Source: a virus (taxonomy: Duplodnaviria; Heunggongvirae; Uroviricota; Caudoviricetes). From it: a stretch of DNA of 32,745 bases. Positions 1 through 32,332 of the stretch are shown here, one piece after another. The notes beneath the pieces are model-generated. The model was not told the origin of the DNA and did no database searches. It worked only from the letters and a program-made list of their open reading frames with translations. The position numbers and the translations under genes are program-made. The stretch lies in IMG/VR virus record IMGVR_UViG_2531839479_000007; one strand, given 5' to 3'. Each line of letters begins with the position of its first letter. Positions within the stretch are counted from its first letter, which is position 1.

Positions 1-852
1 CTAGGATATCTTTCCATGACATTCTTTGAAGCGTTTTCCACTCCCGCAATGACATAAGGCATTTCTTGACATAGATTGTGGTGGACTCAAGTCAATTTCG
101 CTAAGCATCGAAAGTAATTCCTCTGCTGCAATTGCTTCTCCAATCATAACTTGAGTTAGACTTCTCATATGAATCAATAATTCTGCTACAATTTGAGATT
201 CTACAAAACTTTTAGTTTCTCCAGCGTCATTAGTAGCGGTATAGGTGACGCCACTCATATTTTCAGACAAAGCTTCAATAGCTGATTGATGGTATTGACT
301 GATAGGAGCATGCTTACTCACTACAATACCTATTACTTTATTATCTGAAGCTTTTAAAAGAGCTCCACCAGAATTTCCTGAGTTAAATGCCCCATTTACC
401 ACTAGATGTTTTTTTTGTCCCTTGGCGGTTTGGTATGAGTTAAATCCTGCTAGATAACCAACGGATAGTAACGGTGCAGGACCGTTGTATCCTAATGGGT
501 ATCCCCAAGTTGTTACTGATTCACCAACTTTAAGATCATTATCCTTAACAATACTTAGCCCACCAGTCTGGGTAATGGCAGGTCTCAGCACAGCTAAATC
601 GCGATCAGAATCTATCCATTTTTGAGAAATTGGAATCTTCTGTCCATAAGCTGAAATTGCGAAAATCTGATTTGTAGAGCATCCAGTGATAACATGCTCG
701 TTCGTTACTATTAACCCATTATCTATTAAAAAACCAGATCCTTTCGAGCCTGTCGCAGGACATATAATCATATAAACAGAATTTACTGATGAGCGTCCAA
801 CTTCACCCGTAGCGTCTAAAGTCCATTGAGTAGATATGGGGATATTGTTCAA
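1..852 (-). CDS. Trypsin-like (S1 family) serine protease with C-terminal SEC-C metal-binding motif; flanking gene outside the prophage
   Basis: 283-aa ORF; His/Asp/Ser triad contexts TNEHV, DLAVL, GNSGGAL; C-terminal CHCGSGKRFKECHGK matches the SEC-C motif; TTG start at 850-852 with AAGGAG 8 nt upstream; TAG stop at 1-3; visibly AT-rich. Confidence 0.6.
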   Translation of the reverse strand: MNNIPISTQWTLDATGEVGRSSVNSVYMIICPATGSKGSGFLIDNGLIVTNEHVITGCSTNQIFAISAYGQKIPISQKWIDSDRDLAVLRPAITQTGGLSIVKDNDLKVGESVTTWGYPLGYNGPAPLLSVGYLAGFNSYQTAKGQKKHLVVNGAFNSGNSGGALLKASDNKVIGIVVSKHAPISQYHQSAIEALSENMSGVTYTATNDAGETKSFVESQIVAELLIHMRSLTQVMIGEAIAAEELLSMLSEIDLSPPQSMSRNALCHCGSGKRFKECHGKIS

Positions 853-1010
853 AACTGACTCCTTTATTTATAAACTTTTGTTAAATGGCTTGCAGTCTTA
901 TATTCGTTATTTATAAAAATTTAATTAGCTAGTTTATTTTTTGCCCCCCCAAAAATTTCTCAATTGATTCTCAGTTAATCCAATATGCAATTGCTGTCAT
1001 GGATATATAT

Positions 1011-1024
1011 CCTTCTTATTTTTA
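1011..1024. other. Putative left prophage junction (attL core-like CTTATTTTT); position approximate
   Basis: ccttCTTATTTTTa shares CTTATTTTT with the right-end core; composition turns GC-richer just to the right; a second weaker candidate TTTATTTTTT lies at 943-952. Confidence 0.25.
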
Positions 1025-1120
1025 AGGAATTTTACACATATAACTAACGTTAGTCACTCTCTAGAACCCGCTCCTGGCACTTTGCCGACGGAAATGTACT
1101 TAACATAACTGATCTAAAAG

Positions 1121-1148
1121 TTGCAAAAAGCCCCGCATTCGCGGGGCT
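1121..1148 (-). terminator. Intrinsic terminator downstream of ogr
   Basis: Stem AGCCCCGC / loop ATTC / GCGGGGCT at 1129-1148, followed on the minus strand by TTTT (plus 1125-1128); a T-rich run also follows on the plus strand, so possibly bidirectional. Confidence 0.55.
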
Positions 1149-1158
1149 TTCTCGTTTG

Positions 1159-1380
1159 TCACATCCAGTGAATTTGTTGCTGACCTGATGATGTCGGATG
1201 CGGCGGCGCGGGGACTACTTCCCCCGGCGACACGATAAAACGCTCGACTGTTTCAGTGGTCACAAACGTGCAGCTGCAGTTAATGTTTGTGCACTGGTGA
1301 TACCGCTCTTTTGTGGTATCAGTAAAATAGCGACTCGTGCGGGCGTGGGCGGCATGATGGCATTTCGGACAATGAAACAT
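1159..1380 (-). CDS. ogr: Ogr, zinc-finger late-gene transcription activator
   Basis: MFHCPKCHHAAHARTSRYFTDTTKERYHQC... closely matches P2 Ogr; CxxC...CxxC zinc finger; ATG at 1378-1380 with GGAG upstream; ORF-track start at 1404 is TTG. Confidence 0.9.
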   Translation of the reverse strand: MFHCPKCHHAAHARTSRYFTDTTKERYHQCTNINCSCTFVTTETVERFIVSPGEVVPAPPHPTSSGQQQIHWM

Positions 1381-7778: not shown

Positions 7779-7873
7779 CCGTTTAACTCCGTGGTTAAGG
7801 GGTGAGTGATATTTTCTGTTGTGTGGCGGGTGCGGGCTATTTGTCAGGGTTGGCTAAGGTCTGACACAACGAC

Positions 7874-7903
7874 GGGAAAGGAAAAGGCGGGCAACTGCCC
7901 GCC
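7874..7903 (-). terminator. Intrinsic terminator between G and FI (end of the V-G late operon)
   Basis: GGCGGGC / AACT / GCCCGCC hairpin at 7886-7903 followed on the minus strand by TTTTCCTTTC; lies 10 nt after the G stop. Confidence 0.55.
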
Positions 7904-7913
7904 AGATGTCGGA

Positions 7914-8492
7914 TCAGACTGGCAGCGGCGGCCATTCAATATCCGGAGCATCCTCCGGCTGGATGCGGCTCAGTAAAACACGGTATTTTTTCCATGCAAT
8001 GAGGTGCGTTTTTTCATCGTCGGTTGCCATCTCCAGATCAACGGAGTCCTGTAATGTCGCAACCGCAGTATTGGCCTGTTTAAGAAGCCTGTTTTTGTTG
8101 TTTTTCGCAGCCTCTGTCAATGCATTACGTGCAGCATCAGCATCATCAACCCATGTTTTACCATCCCATTTCTGCCACGGGTTTTCCGGCACAACCGGTG
8201 TTGTTCCTGCCGGATACTGACCCGGCTCGGTTATCTCCCTCTCATGACCTGTTTCGGTGTCATAGACAACCTCACCCCGGTGGTCTTCAGTGATAGCCCA
8301 GCAACCATTTTCAGTGTCATAAACCGGAATAAATCCGTCTCGGGTTTCCGGGGGCTTTTCACTGGTGCAGCAGGCGGGCAATCCGGTAAATGCCGGTATC
8401 AGGGCGTCACCTTTTCCAATAAATTCACAGGTGTCTGCACGAAAGTTATACACAGTGATAGTCCGGCTTTCTCCGGTCATTTTAAACGTCAT
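7914..8492 (-). CDS. G: Tail fiber assembly protein G (Tfa-like chaperone)
   Basis: 192 aa; C-terminal ...LIAWKKYRVLLSRIQPEDAPDIEWPPLPV is typical of tail fiber assembly proteins; ATG overlaps H stop (TAATG at 8490-8494). Confidence 0.85.
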   Translation of the reverse strand: MTFKMTGESRTITVYNFRADTCEFIGKGDALIPAFTGLPACCTSEKPPETRDGFIPVYDTENGCWAITEDHRGEVVYDTETGHEREITEPGQYPAGTTPVVPENPWQKWDGKTWVDDADAARNALTEAAKNNKNRLLKQANTAVATLQDSVDLEMATDDEKTHLIAWKKYRVLLSRIQPEDAPDIEWPPLPV

Positions 8493-10177
8493 TATGCGAG
8501 TCTCACGATATAGTTAAATGCGATGTTTTTGATGGTGTTTTCTGCATTACCCGACGCGGCGATCGTAATGGTGTGACCGTGTGCGCCAATAGCAACGGAG
8601 TGCGAGTGTGCGCCAATCCCGACATTATGATTGTGGGCACCAATCGCCACGGTATGCGCGTGATTACCTGCAGTTGATGTTGTTTTCGTTCCCGTCGCTA
8701 TTTCGTTACCGTCGGCGGCCTGTCCCCCGGCCTGATCTCCCCGGTGTACGGTAAAAGTGTGCGCATGGTTGCCGGTTGCATTAGTGGTTTTTGTCCCGTA
8801 GTCAAAGGTCGTGGTGGTTTTCGTTCCGTGGTCAAAAGCACTGGTGGTTTTCGTCCCTAAATCGGTGCTCGATGCGCTGGCACCGTGGGCGTGCGATTTA
8901 ATGCCGTCCTGCTCCTGAGACAAAATAGCGCGCCCACTTGCGGGTTTACCTTTGATTGTCCAGCCCCGCATATCAGGAATAACACCCGATGGGTACACCA
9001 CAGCAAGCAGCGGATACGCGGCTTTATCAAAAGTTTGTCCCTGCATGACGGCATAGCCAGCAGGAACACTGTCAGACGGCCACGCAACGGGAGCGCCTAC
9101 CGGAAAAACATCATCAGGCGTCCACGGTGTCCATGCGCCTGTTGAATACTGACTGCGCGAGTAGCTCCGGGAGCTGTTATAAACCCGGTATACCTGAGTC
9201 ACTCCGGCATTTTTATAAATGACCAGCGTCCCGGCGTTATTTTCAGGGTAATGTCTGGCGGCTGAGGTATTAGAATTCGCTGGCTGAAAGTAAATACCCG
9301 GCGTTTTAAGGGTGTCTAAATCCTCCGTTACCAGCCCAATAGCCTGACCGTCGAAAATATCCTTCGAGGTGACACTGGTGTCAGCATTCAGGGAATGTCC
9401 GTTAATTTTACGCGTGGAGGGAACGCGGCCATTAGCATTATCATTCGCCACTTTGACCGCTTTCGGTGTCGCAGCAAGCACCTCAGACACGCTGTCGGTG
9501 GCGCTACTGAGCTGGACAATCCCCTTCTGTGCCGTGGTCGCGTCCTGAGCCGTATATTTACCTTTCGCAAGGTCATACGCCACCTTGACCGCTTTCGGCG
9601 TTGCGGCGAGCGCCTCAGACGTGCTGTCGGTCGCACTGCTTAACTGCGTGAACCCTTTTTCTTTCAGCGTGGCGTCAGGATGGCGACGGGACTGCTCATG
9701 CTCTGCGAGTTTATCGTCGACATAATCCTGCGTCGCCATCACCAGTGTCGTATCGATGGACAGCTCGACGGTGTCGATATCGCTCACCATGATCACCATG
9801 CGCAGCGTCTGTGCGCGGCCTGACCCTTCCGCCAGTTCGGGCTTATAACTTTCGGCCATATTGCCGACCGCAATCAGCGTGCCGGTGTCATCGTAAAGCC
9901 CCATTTCACGCAGCCAGAAACCGCCGGTCTCCGGGGGGATCACCAGCTCCGCCACGACATAATTTTTATGTTTTTTGTCCAGGCTGATTTTGTTCAGCGC
10001 ATGGCGCCAGACCTCATTGACGAGTTTTGTCTGACTGGCGTCTGGTTCGGGCAGCTTACCGCCACCGTCCCCGACGGCCATCACCGCAAAATTGACTTTT
10101 TTCCCGTTCGGGAGCGTCGCCGCCGCCAGTTTTTCCGCACCGGCTCGGGTGATAACGGTTTTATATTTCACTGTCAT
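8492..10177 (-). CDS. H: Tail fiber protein H: conserved P2-like N-terminal shaft, divergent His-rich C-terminal tip
   Basis: 561 aa; N-terminus [20 protein letters not shown]... and repeated [23 protein letters not shown] motif as in P2 gpH; C-terminal HxH repeats (HAH, HNH, HSH, HGH). Confidence 0.9.
9448..9655 (-). repeat. Intragenic tandem direct repeat in H (two ~76-bp units 132 bp apart) encoding the tail-fibre repeat motif
   Basis: Units at 9448-9523 and 9580-9655 align with few mismatches and encode [25 protein letters not shown] / [25 protein letters not shown]. Confidence 0.6.
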
Positions 10178-10719: not shown

Positions 10720-11620
10720 CGTTGCCCCCGATATTTACGCTGTACGCAGTGCAATATGACGCCTGCGTCTCATTGAGTACGATGTCAGCGACCGGCGCGA
10801 CAAGTTCGACACGCTGCACGCCCTCGACGTGAAGCGCGGCATAGATGGCAGACTTGCGGATGTCACGCCCGAGCCGGTGCTGCGCGCTGATATAGGTCTG
10901 CAGCTTCGCTTTTGCCGCACTGAGCACCGGCTCGCTTTCGGGGCCGGGATAAAGATAAAGCGCGGCATCGATGGTGTAGTCGACAATGACCGCCGACTGC
11001 ACGGTCACGCGGTCAGCAACCGGCCTCACATCCTCATCGTTCAGCGCATTACGCACCACGGCGAGCAGCTCCCCGGATGCCGCGCCGTTATTCTCCCGGG
11101 ACAGTACCGACACGGTCACGCAGGCAGGTTCCGGGCTGATAACAGAAATATCGGCGACCCGCCCGTCAGCGCTGCGGCCATGAAACTGATACGCACCGGT
11201 CGACCCGGCCACGCTCATTCCTTCAAAGGCCTGTTGAATACGCAGACGGTAATCGGTGTCCGACTCCATCACAGCAGGTGTCGGCGGCAGCGTGGTTTCA
11301 TCAGCAGGCGTAATAACGAGACGTTCAACGTTGTAATTTGCGCCGATATTGTCGAGGTCGTTTGCGGCAGCACAGGCCAGCATCACCGCCCGTGCCGACT
11401 CATTCACCCGCTGACGCCAGATAACCTCCCGATACGCATTTTCCTGCAGCAGCTTAACAATCGGCTCAGATTCAAGCGTCAGCGTGCGCGCGACCGCGTC
11501 CTGTTGCTCTTCGGGATACAGCGAGACAAGCGTCGCTTTTCGCTCTGTCAGGATGGTTTCATAATCCAGCTCTTCCACAACATCAGGTGCGGCGAGCTGG
11601 CTCAGGTCAACAATAGCCAT
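10712..11620 (-). CDS. J: Baseplate assembly protein J
   Basis: 302 aa, same length as P2 gpJ; ATG at 11618-11620. Confidence 0.9.
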   Translation of the reverse strand: MAIVDLSQLAAPDVVEELDYETILTERKATLVSLYPEEQQDAVARTLTLESEPIVKLLQENAYREVIWRQRVNESARAVMLACAAANDLDNIGANYNVERLVITPADETTLPPTPAVMESDTDYRLRIQQAFEGMSVAGSTGAYQFHGRSADGRVADISVISPEPACVTVSVLSRENNGAASGELLAVVRNALNDEDVRPVADRVTVQSAVIVDYTIDAALYLYPGPESEPVLSAAKAKLQTYISAQHRLGRDIRKSAIYAALHVEGVQRVELVAPVADIVLNETQASYCTAYSVNIGGNDE

Positions 11621-11625
11621 AACGT

Positions 11626-11976
11626 TTAACTCAGTGGAAGGGTGATAGAAAAAGGCTGGCCTGATGCCGAACGCGTGCCGGTCATATCGACGTACATCGC
11701 GCCGTCATCCTCTCCGCGTTCAAAGGTGATGGTCGACAAACTGACGCGCGGTTCCCACTTCTGGATCGCGGAGTAGCACGCGGCCATAATCTGCAGACGC
11801 AGCGCCGGGGTCTGCGGCTGGTCAATCAGTGCAGACAACAGCGAGCCATATTCGCGGCGCATGACCCGCGATCCCACCGGCGTGACCAGAATGTCGCGCA
11901 CGCTTTGCCTGATGTGCTCAACCTCAGAAATACTGAGGCCGGTCTGGCTGTTCATTCCCAGATAACGCACCGTCAT
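11626..11976 (-). CDS. W: Baseplate wedge protein W (gp25-like)
   Basis: 116 aa, gpW-like; ATG overlaps V stop (ATGA at 11973-11976). Confidence 0.9.
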   Translation of the reverse strand: MTVRYLGMNSQTGLSISEVEHIRQSVRDILVTPVGSRVMRREYGSLLSALIDQPQTPALRLQIMAACYSAIQKWEPRVSLSTITFERGEDDGAMYVDMTGTRSASGQPFSITLPLS

Positions 11977-12614
11977 TTGACCCCCTTCGTCCAGTTTCCG
12001 CCTGGCTCCACGCCACCATGATCGTGGTCATCGACCTGCACGCCATTTGAGGTAAATTTCCCGCCGGTGTGCTCGATGTTCCCCGACATCGTCCCGCCTT
12101 TTTTCACTTCGAGCGTGCCGGTTGTCAGCTTGTTGGTACACACCACCTCGGGTGTATCGAGGGTGATGCGGGTGGATGCCTTAACCAGTACCAGCGGCAC
12201 GGTGGCAGTAATGGACTCTGATGCAATGACGTCGGCAGTTTTAATACCGGACACGGTGAGCGCCCCGTTTTCGGGTTCGTACTCAATAACCGCCCCGTCA
12301 GGAAACGAGACATGCAGGGCATCGGGTGAGGCAGACGGCGCGGGATGGTCATCAGAGAAAATACCAGGCAGCACAAAGGCAGTGTCGAGTTCGCCCCCAA
12401 TGGCAAGAATGAGCACCTGCTCGCCAACGGAAGGAGCCCACCACACCCGTGAGCGACCGGCGCGACAGGTCAGCCAGTTAAGCCACGTGGTTTGCATCCC
12501 TCCGGTCTGCACACGACAAAGCCCCTCAACGGGTTCAACGTCTGTCACAACGCCGGTGCGGATAAGGTTGCGGATCGCACGAGCGATTTCCTGCAGAGAA
12601 GTTAAATTGTTCAT
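11973..12614 (-). CDS. V: Baseplate spike protein V
   Basis: Start set at MNNLTSLQEIARAIRNL (ATG 12612-12614), matching the P2 gpV N-terminus; the ORF-track start at 12716 is a longer upstream extension. Confidence 0.85.
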   Translation of the reverse strand: MNNLTSLQEIARAIRNLIRTGVVTDVEPVEGLCRVQTGGMQTTWLNWLTCRAGRSRVWWAPSVGEQVLILAIGGELDTAFVLPGIFSDDHPAPSASPDALHVSFPDGAVIEYEPENGALTVSGIKTADVIASESITATVPLVLVKASTRITLDTPEVVCTNKLTTGTLEVKKGGTMSGNIEHTGGKFTSNGVQVDDHDHGGVEPGGNWTKGVK

Positions 12615-13045: not shown

Positions 13046-14032
13046 TTATGGATTTGACTTCCCTGAAGTCTCTTTTTTTATTTCAAATTTCCCACCCTTG
13101 AACATGATATTCGAATCTTTGATTCCATACAAAAGCATTTCATAAGGATGGTTAATTTTTTGTTCTTTTGTAGCGATACTGGAATTCATCAATTGCAACA
13201 AAGCCACATGATGTTCACTCGCCCCTAACTCTACCATTTTGGTAGCCATGTTGCTTATCTGTTCTCGTTTTAAAAAATCTTCCCGGAGAGAAAGTAACGT
13301 TAAACTTCGTGCGTTACAAAACTTTATCATGTAAACAACAAACGCACCTAACCCAATATAGGAAAACGATAATGCTAAATAAATAGACGGTGTGGTTATT
13401 ATGTTTTGCCCAAATATAAGAAAACCCAGCAGGCCAAAAAAATAAAAAACATTCACCAAAATAAACATGTTACTCATCAGAGCCTTTGTACTTCGAGTTG
13501 CATCATATTCTTTCTCCAGATGCTCCAAAAATGATGATATTTTTATTAAATTTAACTTTTCAATTGTTTCCTTCTCTAAAATCTTGAATTGCTCACTCTC
13601 TCTAATTAATTTTTTGGTAGTGTCCTCCACTGTATCATGCAATGATTCAGTGATCGCCTCTTCAATTTTATTTTCAGAAAACACGCTTGTTAAAGCGTAA
13701 TTGGCTAATTCCTTTTGTCTTTTCTCGATTAAACTTTCGACATTTTCTCTGTACGCATCAAAATATTTTTGACCACTCTCGTTTAGCAATATTTTACGAA
13801 TATGAAATTTTATTTTCTCATCTGCCATTGGTTGGCTTTCAGTGTTACCATTCTTCTTTGTGTTATTATCTTTAGTTTCCGCATTATACCTGTCCTTGCC
13901 TGAATCAAGTAAGTTCCGTGAAATGAATTTCACCACAGGACCACGCAGAATAGCTATAGCTATTGCCATTGCAAGAATGAATGGTGAAGCATCAATAAAT
14001 GATCGCGCAAATACGAAAGAGATTTCACTCAT
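13046..14032 (-). CDS. AT-rich moron: predicted membrane protein of unknown function (N-terminal TM helix, charged central region, two further TM helices, soluble C-terminal domain)
   Basis: Start set at ATG 14030-14032 (AGGGA 8 nt upstream); hydrophobic stretches SPFILAMAIAIAIL, MFILVNVFYFFGLLGFLIFG, IYLALSFSYIGLGAFVVYMIKF; sharp drop in GC relative to V and S on either side. Confidence 0.6.
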   Translation of the reverse strand: MSEISFVFARSFIDASPFILAMAIAIAILRGPVVKFISRNLLDSGKDRYNAETKDNNTKKNGNTESQPMADEKIKFHIRKILLNESGQKYFDAYRENVESLIEKRQKELANYALTSVFSENKIEEAITESLHDTVEDTTKKLIRESEQFKILEKETIEKLNLIKISSFLEHLEKEYDATRSTKALMSNMFILVNVFYFFGLLGFLIFGQNIITTPSIYLALSFSYIGLGAFVVYMIKFCNARSLTLLSLREDFLKREQISNMATKMVELGASEHHVALLQLMNSSIATKEQKINHPYEMLLYGIKDSNIMFKGGKFEIKKETSGKSNP

Positions 14033-23058: not shown

Positions 23059-24171
23059 TTAACCAACCCTTGCTTTTTTATATGGACCACAACTCCAACT
23101 AAAGAAATTCTTACCTAACTTATACCATTTATCAGAAAGCACTGGTGTTAGGTGAGGATTATATTTTTTTAAACTTCCCTTTTGTATATATTTCAATGTA
23201 TTGCTGAGCAAATTCTCTCCAAAACCATCATAACTTACACAAGCAGCGTTGCAGCTACAACGTTTTGATTCGATATACTCACAATCATATTTTATATCAA
23301 GCTTCTTTAATATCGGACGCCAATATGCACCATGTTTTCGATCGAGTTCAAGGGCTGTTTTAAAATCAAAACCTTTTTTATGGTCAATATAAAATTTTAC
23401 TGATTCATCTACGGAGCAAAGATGCTTAAAGAAAATGAGAGATTTTTCTTTTTGTTGCAATTGACTTTGACTTCTTAATACATCTTCAATTGTCGATAAA
23501 GGAACTAGAGATTCTATTTCATGTACATCTAAAATCTCCACGAAACCTGAGCGAGTAATTTGTGAGCCCAAAAAATGTGAGCAAGTACCTCCGAATGGGG
23601 CTCCAGGATGTTTTTTGTCATTATCCACAATACAAAAAACTATCTCATTATTTTGAATTGCACGCTCGAATATATCCTTAGTACTGCCCCCACCGCCATT
23701 TAGAGCGATAAAACCCATTTCGCAGCGAGATAAGTTAATACCTTCGGCATAATGAGCCGCTATAACCTTAAAAAAATCAGAATCCAAAGGATTTTCACAT
23801 ACTATTTTCGTTTTTTGCAATTGTGCCGAGTCATTAAAATACAATGGACCACAAACAAATTTAAAAGATTCACCGATCTGAACCCATTTAAATGATTTAT
23901 CACTAATATTAAAGTCGACAGATACATAAAATGAGACCTGATCCAAGATAGCATAGTACTCTGTTAGACCCGACAAAGCCTCTTGCGCGTAACTTTTTGA
24001 TGAAAGGCTATAAAGCCCGCTTTGATCATTGATAATAGTTTTAAAAAAAACCCTTGCCCCTATAACCAAGTGTTTTTGTTCAGCGAATGCCCGAAGTATA
24101 TTTTCAACCGCTATGGCAAATGAGTTATTTAGCACCTTCTCAGGTGTCGCATTTTCGATATTAATCAACAT
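23059..24171 (-). CDS. Cargo gene 2: 370-aa partner protein of the ATPase, unknown function (possible Toprim-like E...DxD core; Cys-rich C-terminus)
   Basis: ATG at 24169-24171 only 2 nt after the ATPase TAG stop; AT-rich; ...RCEMGFIALNGGGGS...IVFCIVDNDKK... could be Toprim-like; C-terminal CEYIESKRCSCNAAC cluster. Confidence 0.6.
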   Translation of the reverse strand: MLINIENATPEKVLNNSFAIAVENILRAFAEQKHLVIGARVFFKTIINDQSGLYSLSSKSYAQEALSGLTEYYAILDQVSFYVSVDFNISDKSFKWVQIGESFKFVCGPLYFNDSAQLQKTKIVCENPLDSDFFKVIAAHYAEGINLSRCEMGFIALNGGGGSTKDIFERAIQNNEIVFCIVDNDKKHPGAPFGGTCSHFLGSQITRSGFVEILDVHEIESLVPLSTIEDVLRSQSQLQQKEKSLIFFKHLCSVDESVKFYIDHKKGFDFKTALELDRKHGAYWRPILKKLDIKYDCEYIESKRCSCNAACVSYDGFGENLLSNTLKYIQKGSLKKYNPHLTPVLSDKWYKLGKNFFSWSCGPYKKARVG

Positions 24172-24173
24172 AA

Positions 24174-25730
24174 CTACTTACCCGAGAAAAAGCCAACCGG
24201 CCAATTTTTTAGGAAACCATTCTCGTCAAAATAAGATTTCTTAACTATAGTCTGCTGCTTATCATCTTTTTCAAATACCAGTATTGAAATATCATCCTGT
24301 GAAAGACTTTCATTTTCCTCAATATATTCACCAAGTGCTTCAATCATGGTCTGGCTATGTGTCTCAAAAATTATCTTCAAATCTACATTATTTTCTTTTG
24401 CTTTAGTTACTACTTTTGCAAAAATACTTGCTAAATTATGCTGATATGACGGATGTAAATGCAATTCTGGCTGCTCAATGATAAATGTTATAGGTTTTCT
24501 AACCGTGGTAGCACGACGTTCTGTCTCAAGCCAAATGGCTGTAACTATCGGCAAAACCTGAGAATAACCAAACCCCATATCACTAACATTATAGTTCTCA
24601 CTATTTTCACCGGTGTTTATTAAAATTGCAAAGTGAGAGCCACTTTGTTCAACCTTGATAATGAAATCAAAATTTAACTTTGTCCAATCTTCAAATTTTG
24701 ATTTATCAGCCGGTCTTAATGAATTCAAAAGCATTGCAAGATTGGAACCAGTATGATCTATCTCATTAACCTGTAAATCTTGAAAACGATAAAATCTTTC
24801 TGATGTAGCACGCAGTGGAGCTATGTACTTTACATTTCTGAATGAATCTGACAAGGATGTATTTATTATATCTATAAGATTATTAATATTCCATCCAATT
24901 ATAAATGGATATAACTCATTCATTATTTCATCATGTTGAAATTCAAAGTTTCTACTAAAAACTTTTTGTTCCTTAAATAGAAAAGCAACTAATTTACTAG
25001 CGTACGCTTTGGGTATAAAGCCAATTCTTTTGAATGCCTCTGTCACTTGATTTATATCAGATTTAGTATGGAAATATTTCTTTATATATTTCGCCGCTGA
25101 ATCAATAAATGACAATTCTAACGCCCTGTCATGCCTAGAATGTCTCAAATAGAATGATGTGCTTGGAGGAGGACTGTCTTCCTTACCCTTCAAAATTAGA
25201 TTTGGTATGAACTGCCCAAGATTTTTAGCTATTATCCCATCACGCTCTATTGTTTTATCATCTGATTCAATGAGTAATTTAACATTACTACTCTCATCCA
25301 TTGAAATAAATATTGTTAAATCAGCCAATATAAGCTTAATCGTTTTCGTTTTTGTTTTTTTATCTTTAGAGTAAACAGTTAACTCTGCTTCAATATCTGT
25401 TGGTTGCTTTGCTAAATCAGTAGAACGATAATATGTATATCTTTGTGAAACCTCTGGCGGAATTGAGAGTGAAAAACTAAACGTAATTTCTTTTTTTTCA
25501 GAGTTTCGGGAAAGTACATCTGTAAAATCGCCAAAATCCACATATCTCCCATACCATAGTATTGGGCCAGTAGTATTTTCTTCTACAGATTGACGAAGTA
25601 AAGGAAATGTGCGCAATAGGGAACTTTTACCACTGCTGTTCTTACCAACAAATACTGTAATTGGTTTTAAATCAATAAACGTTTTGTTGACAAAGCTCCT
25701 GAAGTTTTGAAGACCTATACCCTTAATCAT
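24174..25730 (-). CDS. Cargo gene 1: ABC/OLD-family (AAA_15/AAA_21-like) ATPase without a C-terminal Toprim domain
   Basis: Start set at MIKGIGLQNFRSF (ATG 25728-25730, GGAG 6 nt upstream); Walker A GKNSSGKSS, Walker B/D-loop ITFIIEQPELHLHP, H-loop IIFETHS; ORF-track start at 25802 is TTG inside the cos-like sequence. Confidence 0.75.
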   Translation of the reverse strand: MIKGIGLQNFRSFVNKTFIDLKPITVFVGKNSSGKSSLLRTFPLLRQSVEENTTGPILWYGRYVDFGDFTDVLSRNSEKKEITFSFSLSIPPEVSQRYTYYRSTDLAKQPTDIEAELTVYSKDKKTKTKTIKLILADLTIFISMDESSNVKLLIESDDKTIERDGIIAKNLGQFIPNLILKGKEDSPPPSTSFYLRHSRHDRALELSFIDSAAKYIKKYFHTKSDINQVTEAFKRIGFIPKAYASKLVAFLFKEQKVFSRNFEFQHDEIMNELYPFIIGWNINNLIDIINTSLSDSFRNVKYIAPLRATSERFYRFQDLQVNEIDHTGSNLAMLLNSLRPADKSKFEDWTKLNFDFIIKVEQSGSHFAILINTGENSENYNVSDMGFGYSQVLPIVTAIWLETERRATTVRKPITFIIEQPELHLHPSYQHNLASIFAKVVTKAKENNVDLKIIFETHSQTMIEALGEYIEENESLSQDDISILVFEKDDKQQTIVKKSYFDENGFLKNWPVGFFSGK

Positions 25731-25801
25731 TCCTAGCTCCATTAGTTCAATAAAATCAATCGATTTTGAGACAATCTTAATATCTTTGACAGGCGCGCGC
25801 A

Positions 25802-25820
25802 ATGCTTACCCCGCCTCGCC
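25802..25820. other. cos-like site (19-nt cohesive-end sequence)
   Basis: Minus strand reads GGCGAGGCGGGGTAAGCAT, 17/19 identical to the P2 cohesive end as I recall it (GGCGAGGCGGGGAAAGCAC). Confidence 0.55.
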
Positions 25821-31148: not shown

Positions 31149-32162
31149 ATGTCTGTTAAAAAGCTCGATGATGGTCGTTATGAAGTGGACATTAGACCTG
31201 CAGGGCGCAACGGAAAGCGCATCCGCAGGAAATTTGACAAGAAAAGCGAAGCTATCGCTTTCGAGAAGCATACCCAGTACAACCATCACAACAAAGAATG
31301 GTTGGCGAAACCGACAGATAAGCGGCATCTGTCAGAGCTAACAAAAATCTGGTGGGAGCTGAAAGGCAAGTATGAAACTCACGGCCGAGATTACCTGGGC
31401 AAGTTAGAGTTGTTCACAAAGATAACCAGTGACCCTTGTGCCTTTCAGATTACTAAGTCATTGATAAGCCAATACAGCACTGTGCGGCGTTCTCAAGGCA
31501 TCAAGCCATCGAGTATAAATCGTGATTTAACGTGTCTTAGCGGGATGTTTACCGCGTTGATAGATGCGGAGCTATTTTTCGGGGAGCATCCTTTCCGAGG
31601 TCTTAAAAGACTCAAAGAGGATAAGCCAGAAACCGGCTACCTGACGCAAGAGGAGATCGCGCTTCTGCTGTCAAAAGTGGACGGTGATAATAAAAAAATT
31701 GCGATTCTTTGCCTTAGCACCGGCGCGAGATGGAGTGAGGCAGCAAAACTGAAAGCGGAAAATATCATTCAAAATCGCGTCACTTTCGTTAAGACAAAAA
31801 CCAACAAGCCGCGAACCGTTCCTATATCCGAGGAACTGGCAACAATGATCACAACGGGTAAGCGTGGCTATCTGTTCACTGATGCTAACTATCCCGCGTT
31901 CAGACGGCTAATGAAGGAGCTGAAACCCGACCTACCACCGGGTCAGGCTACGCACGCATTGCGGCACAGCTTCGCCACGCACTTTATGATAAACGGAGGC
32001 AACATTATCACGCTTCAGAGAATACTTGGGCATTCAAGAATTGAGCAGACAATGACATATGCGCACTTCGCCCCTGAGTACCTACAGGACGCGATAACGC
32101 TTAATCCTCTACGTGGTGGTGTTGGCTCTCAGAGTGTCCACACAGTGTCCACAGTAGGGTAG
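31149..32162 (+). CDS. int: Tyrosine integrase
   Basis: Start set at MSVKKLDDGRYEVDIRP (ATG 31149, GGGAGG 4 nt upstream); 337 aa as P2 Int; C-terminal ...HALRHSFATHFMINGGNIITLQRILGHSRIEQTMTYAHF catalytic region. Confidence 0.9.
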   Translation: MSVKKLDDGRYEVDIRPAGRNGKRIRRKFDKKSEAIAFEKHTQYNHHNKEWLAKPTDKRHLSELTKIWWELKGKYETHGRDYLGKLELFTKITSDPCAFQITKSLISQYSTVRRSQGIKPSSINRDLTCLSGMFTALIDAELFFGEHPFRGLKRLKEDKPETGYLTQEEIALLLSKVDGDNKKIAILCLSTGARWSEAAKLKAENIIQNRVTFVKTKTNKPRTVPISEELATMITTGKRGYLFTDANYPAFRRLMKELKPDLPPGQATHALRHSFATHFMINGGNIITLQRILGHSRIEQTMTYAHFAPEYLQDAITLNPLRGGVGSQSVHTVSTVG

Positions 32163-32246: not shown

Positions 32247-32269
32247 CCCTTACACGGGCTTATTTTTTT
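32247..32269. other. att core (right prophage junction), P2-type
   Basis: CCCTTACACGGGCTTATTTTTTT; reverse complement AAAAAAATAAGCCCGTGTAAGGG matches about 22 positions of the P2 27-bp core as I recall it; 85 bp downstream of int. Confidence 0.55.
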
Positions 32270-32332
32270 ATGCATAAGCCCTATCTCTGGTAACCGTCTT
32301 CCATTGACCACATCGATAGAATCTCCCTTCAT

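Follow-up and report, generated by a model that had tools for sequence, protein, structure and literature searches.

A single-gene cassette in a P2-like prophage of Escherichia coli encodes an HtrA-type protease with a SecA-type metal-binding tail

The DNA analyzed here is a stretch of 32,745 nucleotides from IMG/VR virus record IMGVR_UViG_2531839479_000007, referred to below as the window. The whole window is a P2-like prophage situated between cyaR and yegR of Escherichia coli, and its first gene, on the minus strand at positions 1–852, encodes a serine protease of 283 amino acids (WP_001059829.1). The protein consists of an HtrA-type (S1C-like) protease and a C-terminal SecA-type metal-binding tail and, judging from its sequence, it is probably active and cytoplasmic. 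Together with its own ribosome-binding site, an upstream region, and a terminator copy, the gene forms a one-gene cassette with the layout of a phage moron. We regard the structural and genomic side of this account, namely the one-gene cargo cassette and the architecture of the protease, as close to certain. Protection of the lysogen against other phages is the role that we judge most likely.

The cassette differs in composition from the phage that carries it, with a GC (guanine plus cytosine) content of 0.36–0.39 as compared with 0.55–0.62 for the prophage backbone (about 0.57 in the neighboring phage genes). Related P2-like prophages, which are 85–86% identical, cease to match the window at positions 1124–1127. 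In strain UTAK-6, a related prophage occupies the same cyaR site (locus L095), and here cyaR, the attachment (att) core, ~100 bp of DNA, a hairpin, and ogr are contiguous. The empty-site alignment with this prophage shows 257 identical bases of 269. For the DNA to the left of the window, the sequence of NZ_AP021944.1 (locus L001) was used, and the junction is common to all 35 carrier genomes described below. The extra DNA measures ~1.27 kb, extends from window position −139 to about 1126, and is flanked by two copies of the ogr terminator hairpin that are identical at 26 of 27 positions. One copy (1124–1150, minus strand) forms the right boundary of the cassette, where the related prophages stop matching. 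The 27-bp duplicate is the terminator of the protease gene and lies 146–172 bp to the left of the window (L001 19828–19854). Because a run of T follows each hairpin on the minus strand, one terminator is present for ogr and another for the protease gene. Two features of a moron are thus present: extra DNA of deviant composition between sites that are adjacent in a related phage, and a terminator of its own, seen as a GC-rich hairpin and T-run downstream of the protease gene. A first-pass annotation, made from the sequence without database searches, had suggested that the AT-rich DNA might lie on an island. A foreign AT-rich insertion is indeed present, but the "island" is a phage moron of 1.27 kb.

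The region upstream of the protease gene within the cassette (853–1123, minus strand) is AT-rich and contains two weak σ70-like matches, TTGAGA-16-AAAAAT at 963–936 and GTGACT-17-TAAAAT at 1057–1029 (each 9/12). A tract of seven C residues (944–950) is situated inside the spacer of the better match, TTGAGA-16-AAAAAT. Phase variation through this tract was considered and dropped. The C7 tract is present in 34 of the 35 genomes, and the C6 tract of NZ_OZ282453.1, the only insertion or deletion in the region, may be an assembly error or rare slippage.

The ends of the prophage place the gene inside the element. The cyaR small RNA gene is located 241–326 bp to the left of window position 1 (L001 19674–19759; Rfam CyaR, 100.7 bits). 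The longest word common to both prophage ends is a 22-bp att core, CCCTTACACGGGCTTATTTTTT. One copy is found at 32247–32268 (plus strand), just after the prophage integrase gene (31149–32162, plus strand) at the opposite end of the element, and the second copy forms part of the 3′ end of cyaR, 238–259 bp to the left of the window (L001 19741–19762). Since the cores lie at the cyaR 3′ end and after the integrase gene, the protease gene is inside the prophage, between att and ogr (1159–1380, minus strand), the late-gene activator and phage core gene that adjoins the cassette according to the RefSeq annotation of the identical region. The initial description of the gene as flanking the prophage, next to an att site, was therefore not borne out, as the two cores enclose it. 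The possibility that an att site separates the protease gene from ogr was also rejected, because the sole shared core is the one at the cyaR 3′ end and downstream of the integrase gene. The flank matches 5,424 E. coli genomes up to the att core, and the match continues into the cassette in only 35. In other E. coli genomes, the flank match ends exactly at the core or ~100 bp further, in an old P2 remnant.

Integration of the prophage takes place in the 3′ end (terminator) of cyaR, and the gene is rebuilt with the att core of the phage; CyaR is still matched over its full length in Rfam. A 17-mer, CATTGACCACATCGATA, is common to the yegR-side DNA outside the core (32269–32330) and the phage arm (L001 19763–19830), and in K-12-like genomes ~100 bp of the phage arm and the hairpin persist beside cyaR with 91% identity. 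Because of these two features, the cyaR site appears to carry scars of earlier P2-like integrations.

Window positions 1–1150 are 99.9–100% identical in 35 of 5,426 complete E. coli genomes, and the open reading frame of the protease is intact in all 35 (99–100% identical). Many of the carriers are clinical isolates with New Delhi metallo-β-lactamase (NDM) or extended-spectrum β-lactamase (ESBL); they are near-identical and probably represent one lineage. The window is 100% identical to strain WP2-S18-ESBL-07 (NZ_AP021944.1) at 1–1150. Scattered substitutions appear from position 1213, and the two sequences run out of register near 16.28 kb, probably through an insertion or deletion. Because of these substitutions and the register shift, the window must stem from a carrier strain other than WP2-S18-ESBL-07.

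The open reading frame of the protease is complete, and the first three bases of the window are its stop codon. Translation starts at a TTG codon (850–852) preceded by an AAGGAG ribosome-binding site (860–865) with a 7-nt spacer, both read from the sequence of the minus strand at 850–865. The RefSeq annotation of WP_001059829.1 uses the identical TTG start. The 27 residues before the first internal methionine, Met-28, are conserved across the family, including Thr-8, Asp-13, Gly-16, and Arg-20, and this conservation makes the TTG start credible. The N terminus has no hydrophobic stretch and begins directly at the conserved mature N terminus of the family. Both the TTG start with its canonical AAGGAG site and the absence of a signal peptide had been called in the first-pass annotation, and both calls stand.

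The protease domain comprises residues 38–176 (325–741, minus strand), which match Pfam Trypsin_2 with an E value of 1e-19 and 72.1 bits (cut-off 27.6). Pfam Trypsin also matches the protein (E 5e-8). The catalytic residues His-53 (codon 694–696), Asp-85 (598–600), and Ser-161 (370–372), the last within a GNSGG motif, were read from the minus-strand sequence and are invariant in an alignment of 25 family members from bacteria and archaea. Besides the triad, some 55 alignment columns are invariant across bacteria and archaea. This confirms the intact S1 catalytic triad that had been recognized initially. The domain is followed by a family-specific C-terminal part of the core (residues 181–252; 97–312, minus strand), delimited by alignment conservation and by the secondary structure of a model. 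It is predicted to contain a helix/hairpin insert and then the last barrel strand and a helix, and it carries the conserved motifs VESQ.VA..L and TQVMIGEA. No independent Pfam family or Protein Data Bank fold match was found for residues 181–252.

The fold is that of the HtrA-type protease domain and is shared with HtrA, DegP, DegQ, and DegS (MEROPS S1C). In contrast to these enzymes, the present protein has no PDZ domain (Pfam, E up to 1), and it contains an insert of ~50 residues after the strands that carry the catalytic serine as well as the SEC-C tail. HtrA/Deg proteases are typically extracytoplasmic, but no signal peptide was found in the E. coli protein or in the SEC-C clade of the family. 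The protein falls short of the NCBIfam cut-offs for HtrA/Deg, with 60.4 bits for MarP (cut-off 250), 54.9 for HtrA (cut-off 470), and 50 for the Do family (cut-off 416). Its scores of 50–60 bits are far below these cut-offs of 250–470. The protein belongs to a separate small family, described below.

The tail contains a SEC-C motif, RNALCHCGSGKRFKECHGK, at residues 263–281 (10–66, minus strand), identified with Pfam PF02810 (E 3.6e-7, 30.4 bits against a cut-off of 20.4) and phmmer. The C-terminal SEC-C-type motif noted at first sight thus passes the check on profile significance and is further confirmed by matches to SecA structures. Among solved structures, the best phmmer matches of the tail are to the SecA zinc-binding domain (1tm6, 1sx0, and 1ozb; E 6e-6 to 4e-5), including a peptide crystallized with SecB, and the C terminus of YchJ is matched as well. 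Four metal ligands in the pattern CxCx8C[HC], a conserved serine, and an aromatic residue are the defining features of SecA-like metal-binding domains (MBDs) (10.1101/613315). The tail, CHCGSGKRFKECHG, retains the CxCx8CH ligands (Cys-267, Cys-269, Cys-278, and His-279), the conserved serine (Ser-271), and an aromatic residue (Phe-275). The MBDs of SecA, YecA/AscA, and YchJ have the motif RN..CxCGSGK+[FY]K.C[HC]G, and the four metal ligands, the serine, and the aromatic residue are common to these and the present tail. Identity is 12 of 20 residues to the E. coli SecA tail and 13 of 19 to that of Bacillus subtilis SecA. As in SecA, the tail is at the extreme C terminus after a flexible linker. 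The MBD is joined here to a protease, whereas it is joined to the translocation ATPase in SecA and to a chaperone in YecA/AscA. No description of a protease-MBD fusion was found in the searchable literature.

The family is addressed in two ways that do not occur together. Relatives of the protease numbered at least 1,402 in a word-indexed search. When 1.84 billion cluster representatives (clusters at 50% identity) were searched exhaustively with HMMER, only 140 clusters were matched at E values up to 1e-30, as compared with 13,541 generic trypsin-like matches at E values up to 1e-3, so that the family is small and sharply delimited. It spans many bacterial phyla as well as archaea (Nitrosocosmicus, Pacearchaeota, and Methanosarcinales), with 48–57% identity to the E. 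coli protein. The presence of archaeal and multi-phylum members at this level of identity suggests extensive horizontal transfer. Among 72 full-length genomic homologues, a signal-peptide-like N terminus is present in 45 and a SEC-C tail in 3; the other 24 lack these signals, and no homologue combines the two. Similarly, the 120 closest cluster representatives include 26 with SEC-C, 10 with a signal peptide, and none with both. The mature parts of the signal-peptide-bearing relatives are 40–58% identical to the E. coli protein. SEC-C-bearing members share at least 65% identity with the query, and their named hosts are all gamma-proteobacteria. Tail-less relatives are known at ~70% identity, and a few members have other helical tails.

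Close relatives of the protease, at 70–90% identity, are single-gene cargo of mobile elements, namely lambdoid, P2-like, and another myovirus-type prophage and Vibrio superintegrons. In Vibrio parahaemolyticus, a homologue with 72% identity is a single-gene cassette of the chromosomal superintegron. It has the features of an integron gene cassette, a single open reading frame between attC-like repeats of 125–130 nt directly on either side (L004 9858–9982 and 10849–10978), in an array of short same-strand genes. In one other V. parahaemolyticus genome, the gene adjoins the integrase of a P2-like prophage. In Klebsiella michiganensis (90% identical) it occupies the end of a lambdoid prophage, with umuDC and a gene for a TIR-domain protein as neighbors. 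The Yersinia copy (82% identical) is also in a lambdoid prophage, where it has the replication region on one side and the genes for lysis on the other. Three IMG/VR contigs of myovirus type (17–40 kb, 89% identical) have it as their terminal gene, with flanks unrelated to the present phage. Homologues also occur beside an integron-type integrase fragment in Pseudoalteromonas, beside genes for a reverse transcriptase and a DUF2971 protein in Pseudidiomarina, and in an array of small same-strand genes in Microbulbifer. Judged from these loci, the same gene travels alone among the cargo sites of unrelated temperate phages and integron arrays. The survey of homologue neighborhoods suggested at the outset therefore places the close homologues in mobile-element cargo positions and not in conserved housekeeping operons.

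No neighboring gene is conserved across 80 genome loci. When five open reading frames on each side of ~85 loci were clustered all against all in search of a partner gene, only integrases (7 loci) and one family recurred, and no Pfam family was enriched among 144 upstream open reading frames (this comparison covered the upstream side, and the downstream side was covered by the clustering). In the Yersinia copy (L091), a 560-amino acid protein (7861–9543, minus strand) has a sub-threshold nSTAND1 NTPase match (E 1e-4), and an ORF6N-domain protein is encoded on the other flank (11228–12154, plus strand); these may form a small accessory or defense cluster between the replication and lysis modules. 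In Pseudidiomarina gelatinasegens (L012 7059–9817, plus strand), genes for a 592-amino acid reverse transcriptase (RVT_1, E 4e-19) and the DUF2971 protein lie directly upstream, and this may be a defense-type reverse transcriptase locus.

How the protease might act is suggested by its tail. The MBDs of SecA and YecA/AscA bind SecB and ribosomes and act in the cytoplasm (10.1101/613315; 10.1101/2020.07.21.215244). Because these tails bind SecB and ribosomes, a tethered protease is the simplest mechanism. The lysogen would express the gene from its prophage, the MBD tail would hold the protease at the cytosolic entry of the Sec pathway (SecB) or at ribosomes, and the tethered enzyme would cleave unfolded or nascent client proteins. 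The lysogen, or the integron host, would then be protected against other phages by exclusion or abortive infection. Taken as a whole, the chain from expression in the lysogen through docking and client cleavage to phage exclusion is a tentative proposal, to which we give slightly less than even credence. A bolder version, which we consider rather improbable, is that a single, tightly conserved protease family was redirected from the envelope to the point where the Sec pathway opens into the cytosol, through the exchange of its signal peptide for a SecA-type tail that docks to SecB or ribosomes. This would provide a new single-gene immunity of prophages and integrons, in which secretory proteins held by SecB or still nascent, such as outer membrane phage receptors or exported phage proteins, are cleaved and infection is blocked or aborted.

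A defense role is favored by the company that the gene keeps and by its parts. The cargo of P2-like prophages is largely defense-related (PMC9122126; PMC13586616, a recent survey of 1,511 P2-like prophages), as are often the cassettes of chromosomal integrons (10.1101/2024.07.02.601686). The prophage itself carries an NsnB/PDC-M55A-like ATPase pair at a classical cargo hotspot. SEC-C motifs recur on defense proteins, and trypsin-like domains are common as defense effectors, fused to, or encoded beside, a sensor and/or pro-effector (10.1101/2025.09.03.673762; PMC12799240). In this setting, the effector role in defense or toxin systems raised in the first-pass annotation is plausible.

The protease was compared with known systems. 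In PADLOC-DB v2, it matches RT-Protease_XI (E 7e-21), PDC-M35A (6e-13), LmuA (5e-7), and HamA (8e-7), and its protease domain is closest to the protease of retron type XI. A full-length match with the partners of a known anti-phage system was not found in PADLOC-DB v2, and PADLOC, PHROGs, and NCBIfam gave only generic matches to the protease domain or the SEC-C tail and no named system. A Trypsin_2-type domain in a mobile or defense context is shared with the retron type XI reverse transcriptase-protease, with protease versions of Lamassu, Hachiman, and Avs, and with the pairs of trypsin and metallo-β-lactamase (MBL) or of nuclease and protease. However, no adjacent gene for an MBL-fold protein, a nuclease, or another pro-effector was found in the E. 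coli cassette or among the homologue neighbors. The SEC-C motif is also present on stand-alone proteins in the single-gene defense proteins DS-23 (DefensePredictor, WP_020231147.1) and lactococcal Rugutis, but these have no sequence relationship to the present protease outside the motif. Like the exclusion cargo of P2 (old, tin, and fun/Z) and the hotspots of P2-like phages, the cassette is AT-rich, variably present accessory DNA; it differs in its ogr-att location and in encoding an unrelated protein. The P2 cargo genes old, tin, and fun protect the lysogen against other phages. Lit of prophage e14, a zinc metalloprotease, cuts EF-Tu in response to a capsid peptide of T4. As a single prophage-encoded abortive-infection protease, it is a functional analogy only, with no homology.

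Several observations weigh against this account. The matches in PADLOC are partial and at the domain level, to RT-Protease_XI over its protease part and to E2 over its SEC-C tail, and unlike the trypsin-like defense effector modules the present cassette has neither a partner gene nor a sensor domain. No experiment or publication was found that ties the protease family to defense, and a literature search for its accession among defense screens gave nothing specific, with the DefensePredictor supplements covered in part. The binding of SecB or ribosomes by the present tail is extrapolated from its 60–68% identity to the SecA MBD. Among the distant relatives, the majority have signal peptides and are encoded amid ordinary chromosomal genes, and the family taken together is therefore not a defense family. 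The P2 hotspots listed in PMC13586616 do not include the position between ogr and att. Searches with tblastn found no homologue in 50,697 GenBank phage records or 72,556 PLSDB plasmids, and Megablast found no match to the ogr region in the GenBank phage records. The 35 E. coli carriers are near-identical, many with the same strain names, and probably represent few independent acquisitions. Finally, shuffled sequence yields as many σ70-like matches as the region upstream of the protease gene, whose promoter is therefore only presumed.

Other explanations must be considered. The protein could be an accessory of Sec-pathway proteostasis, a protease counterpart of YecA/AscA that clears jammed or mislocalized precursors at SecB or the ribosome and adds to fitness under stress, without relation to phages. 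Its layout is that of AscA, with a client-binding domain followed by a SecA-like MBD (10.1101/2020.07.21.215244). Furthermore, the HtrA-type proteases, whose fold it matches, are classical quality-control enzymes, and the signal-peptide relatives probably act on unfolded envelope proteins. Such a function accounts neither for the restriction of the SEC-C clade to cargo sites of prophages and to integron cassettes nor for the rarity of the gene, present in only 35 of the 5,426 E. coli genomes; we regard it as unlikely.

Less probable still is a protease that benefits the phage during induction or infection, by degrading host defense proteins or remodeling secretion in the course of counter-defense or takeover. 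Several unrelated temperate phages carry the gene, and a cytoplasmic protease could inactivate host immune proteins. Yet it occurs just as readily in Vibrio chromosomal integrons, as a promoterless-type cassette from which no phage gains. In the present prophage it stands outside the early and late operons, behind the ogr terminator and with a terminator of its own, and anti-defense genes are rare in P2-like phages (PMC13586616).

The signal-peptide-like N termini of 45 of the 72 full-length genomic homologues, with mature parts 40–58% identical, might point to a protease that is exported by a non-classical route and serves lysogenic conversion or surface remodeling. This is very improbable, given that the E. 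coli protein starts at the conserved mature N terminus with no hydrophobic stretch, that the related tails of SecA and YecA/AscA are cytoplasmic and bind SecB and ribosomes (10.1101/613315; 10.1101/2020.07.21.215244), and that SEC-C and a signal peptide were found together in none of the 120 proteins and none of the 72 genome loci. There is equally little to recommend the idea of functionless hitch-hiking DNA, a captured gene in decay. The gene has no known phenotype, and its promoter matches are weak, but its reading frame is intact in the 35 genomes, the triad and some 55 further columns are invariant across bacteria and archaea, and mobile elements have captured it independently at several different sites, which implies selection. 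Its AT-richness and its place as the last gene before host gene yegQ might suggest that it belongs to a host chromosomal island and does no more than flank the prophage beside att. This reading is refuted by the att core at the cyaR end, between yegQ and the protease gene, and the gene is missing from genomes without the prophage and from the related prophage at the same site. Protection of the lysogen thus remains the role that we favor.

The prophage contains two further AT-rich islands. The island at 23059–25802 (minus strand; GC 0.32–0.37) occupies the classical P2 hotspot between GpA and GpQ (old/tin). It encodes a 542-amino acid ATPase with AAA_15, AAA_21, and DUF3696 matches, which in PADLOC matches NsnB (E 5e-55), PDC-M55A (8e-46), and AriA (7e-31), and beside it a 370-amino acid protein with only a weak PDC-M55B match (2e-4). 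The two genes probably constitute an ATPase-type defense system. The third island (13046–14032, minus strand; GC 0.33–0.38) is situated between baseplate gene V and the tail-completion genes. Its 328-amino acid product has no Pfam or PADLOC match. Because P2 carries orf30 at this position, the gene is another uncharacterized cargo gene.

The protease is of a kind already known, the cargo proteases of prophages and integrons, and as far as its sequence tells, the SEC-C-tailed form is a new variant whose likeness to defense proteases is only at the domain level. The exchange between signal peptide and SEC-C tail is unusual, and nothing yet contradicts expectation. Because the two signals do not occur together, the family offers a natural experiment in how an enzyme is re-addressed from one compartment to another. 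It is also a simple test case, as the catalytic serine and the four metal ligands can be mutated separately. In E. coli, secB is dispensable. Should the gene prove to protect lysogens, the anti-phage repertoire would gain a compact protease system of one protein (0.85 kb), and the ogr-att junction would be one more cargo site of P2-like phages. Since the carriers are mostly clinical E. coli of the NDM/ESBL type, any phage-resistance phenotype would be relevant to the choice of therapeutic phages. The protein could also give a first functional handle on the recurrence of SecA-like metal-binding tails on defense proteins.

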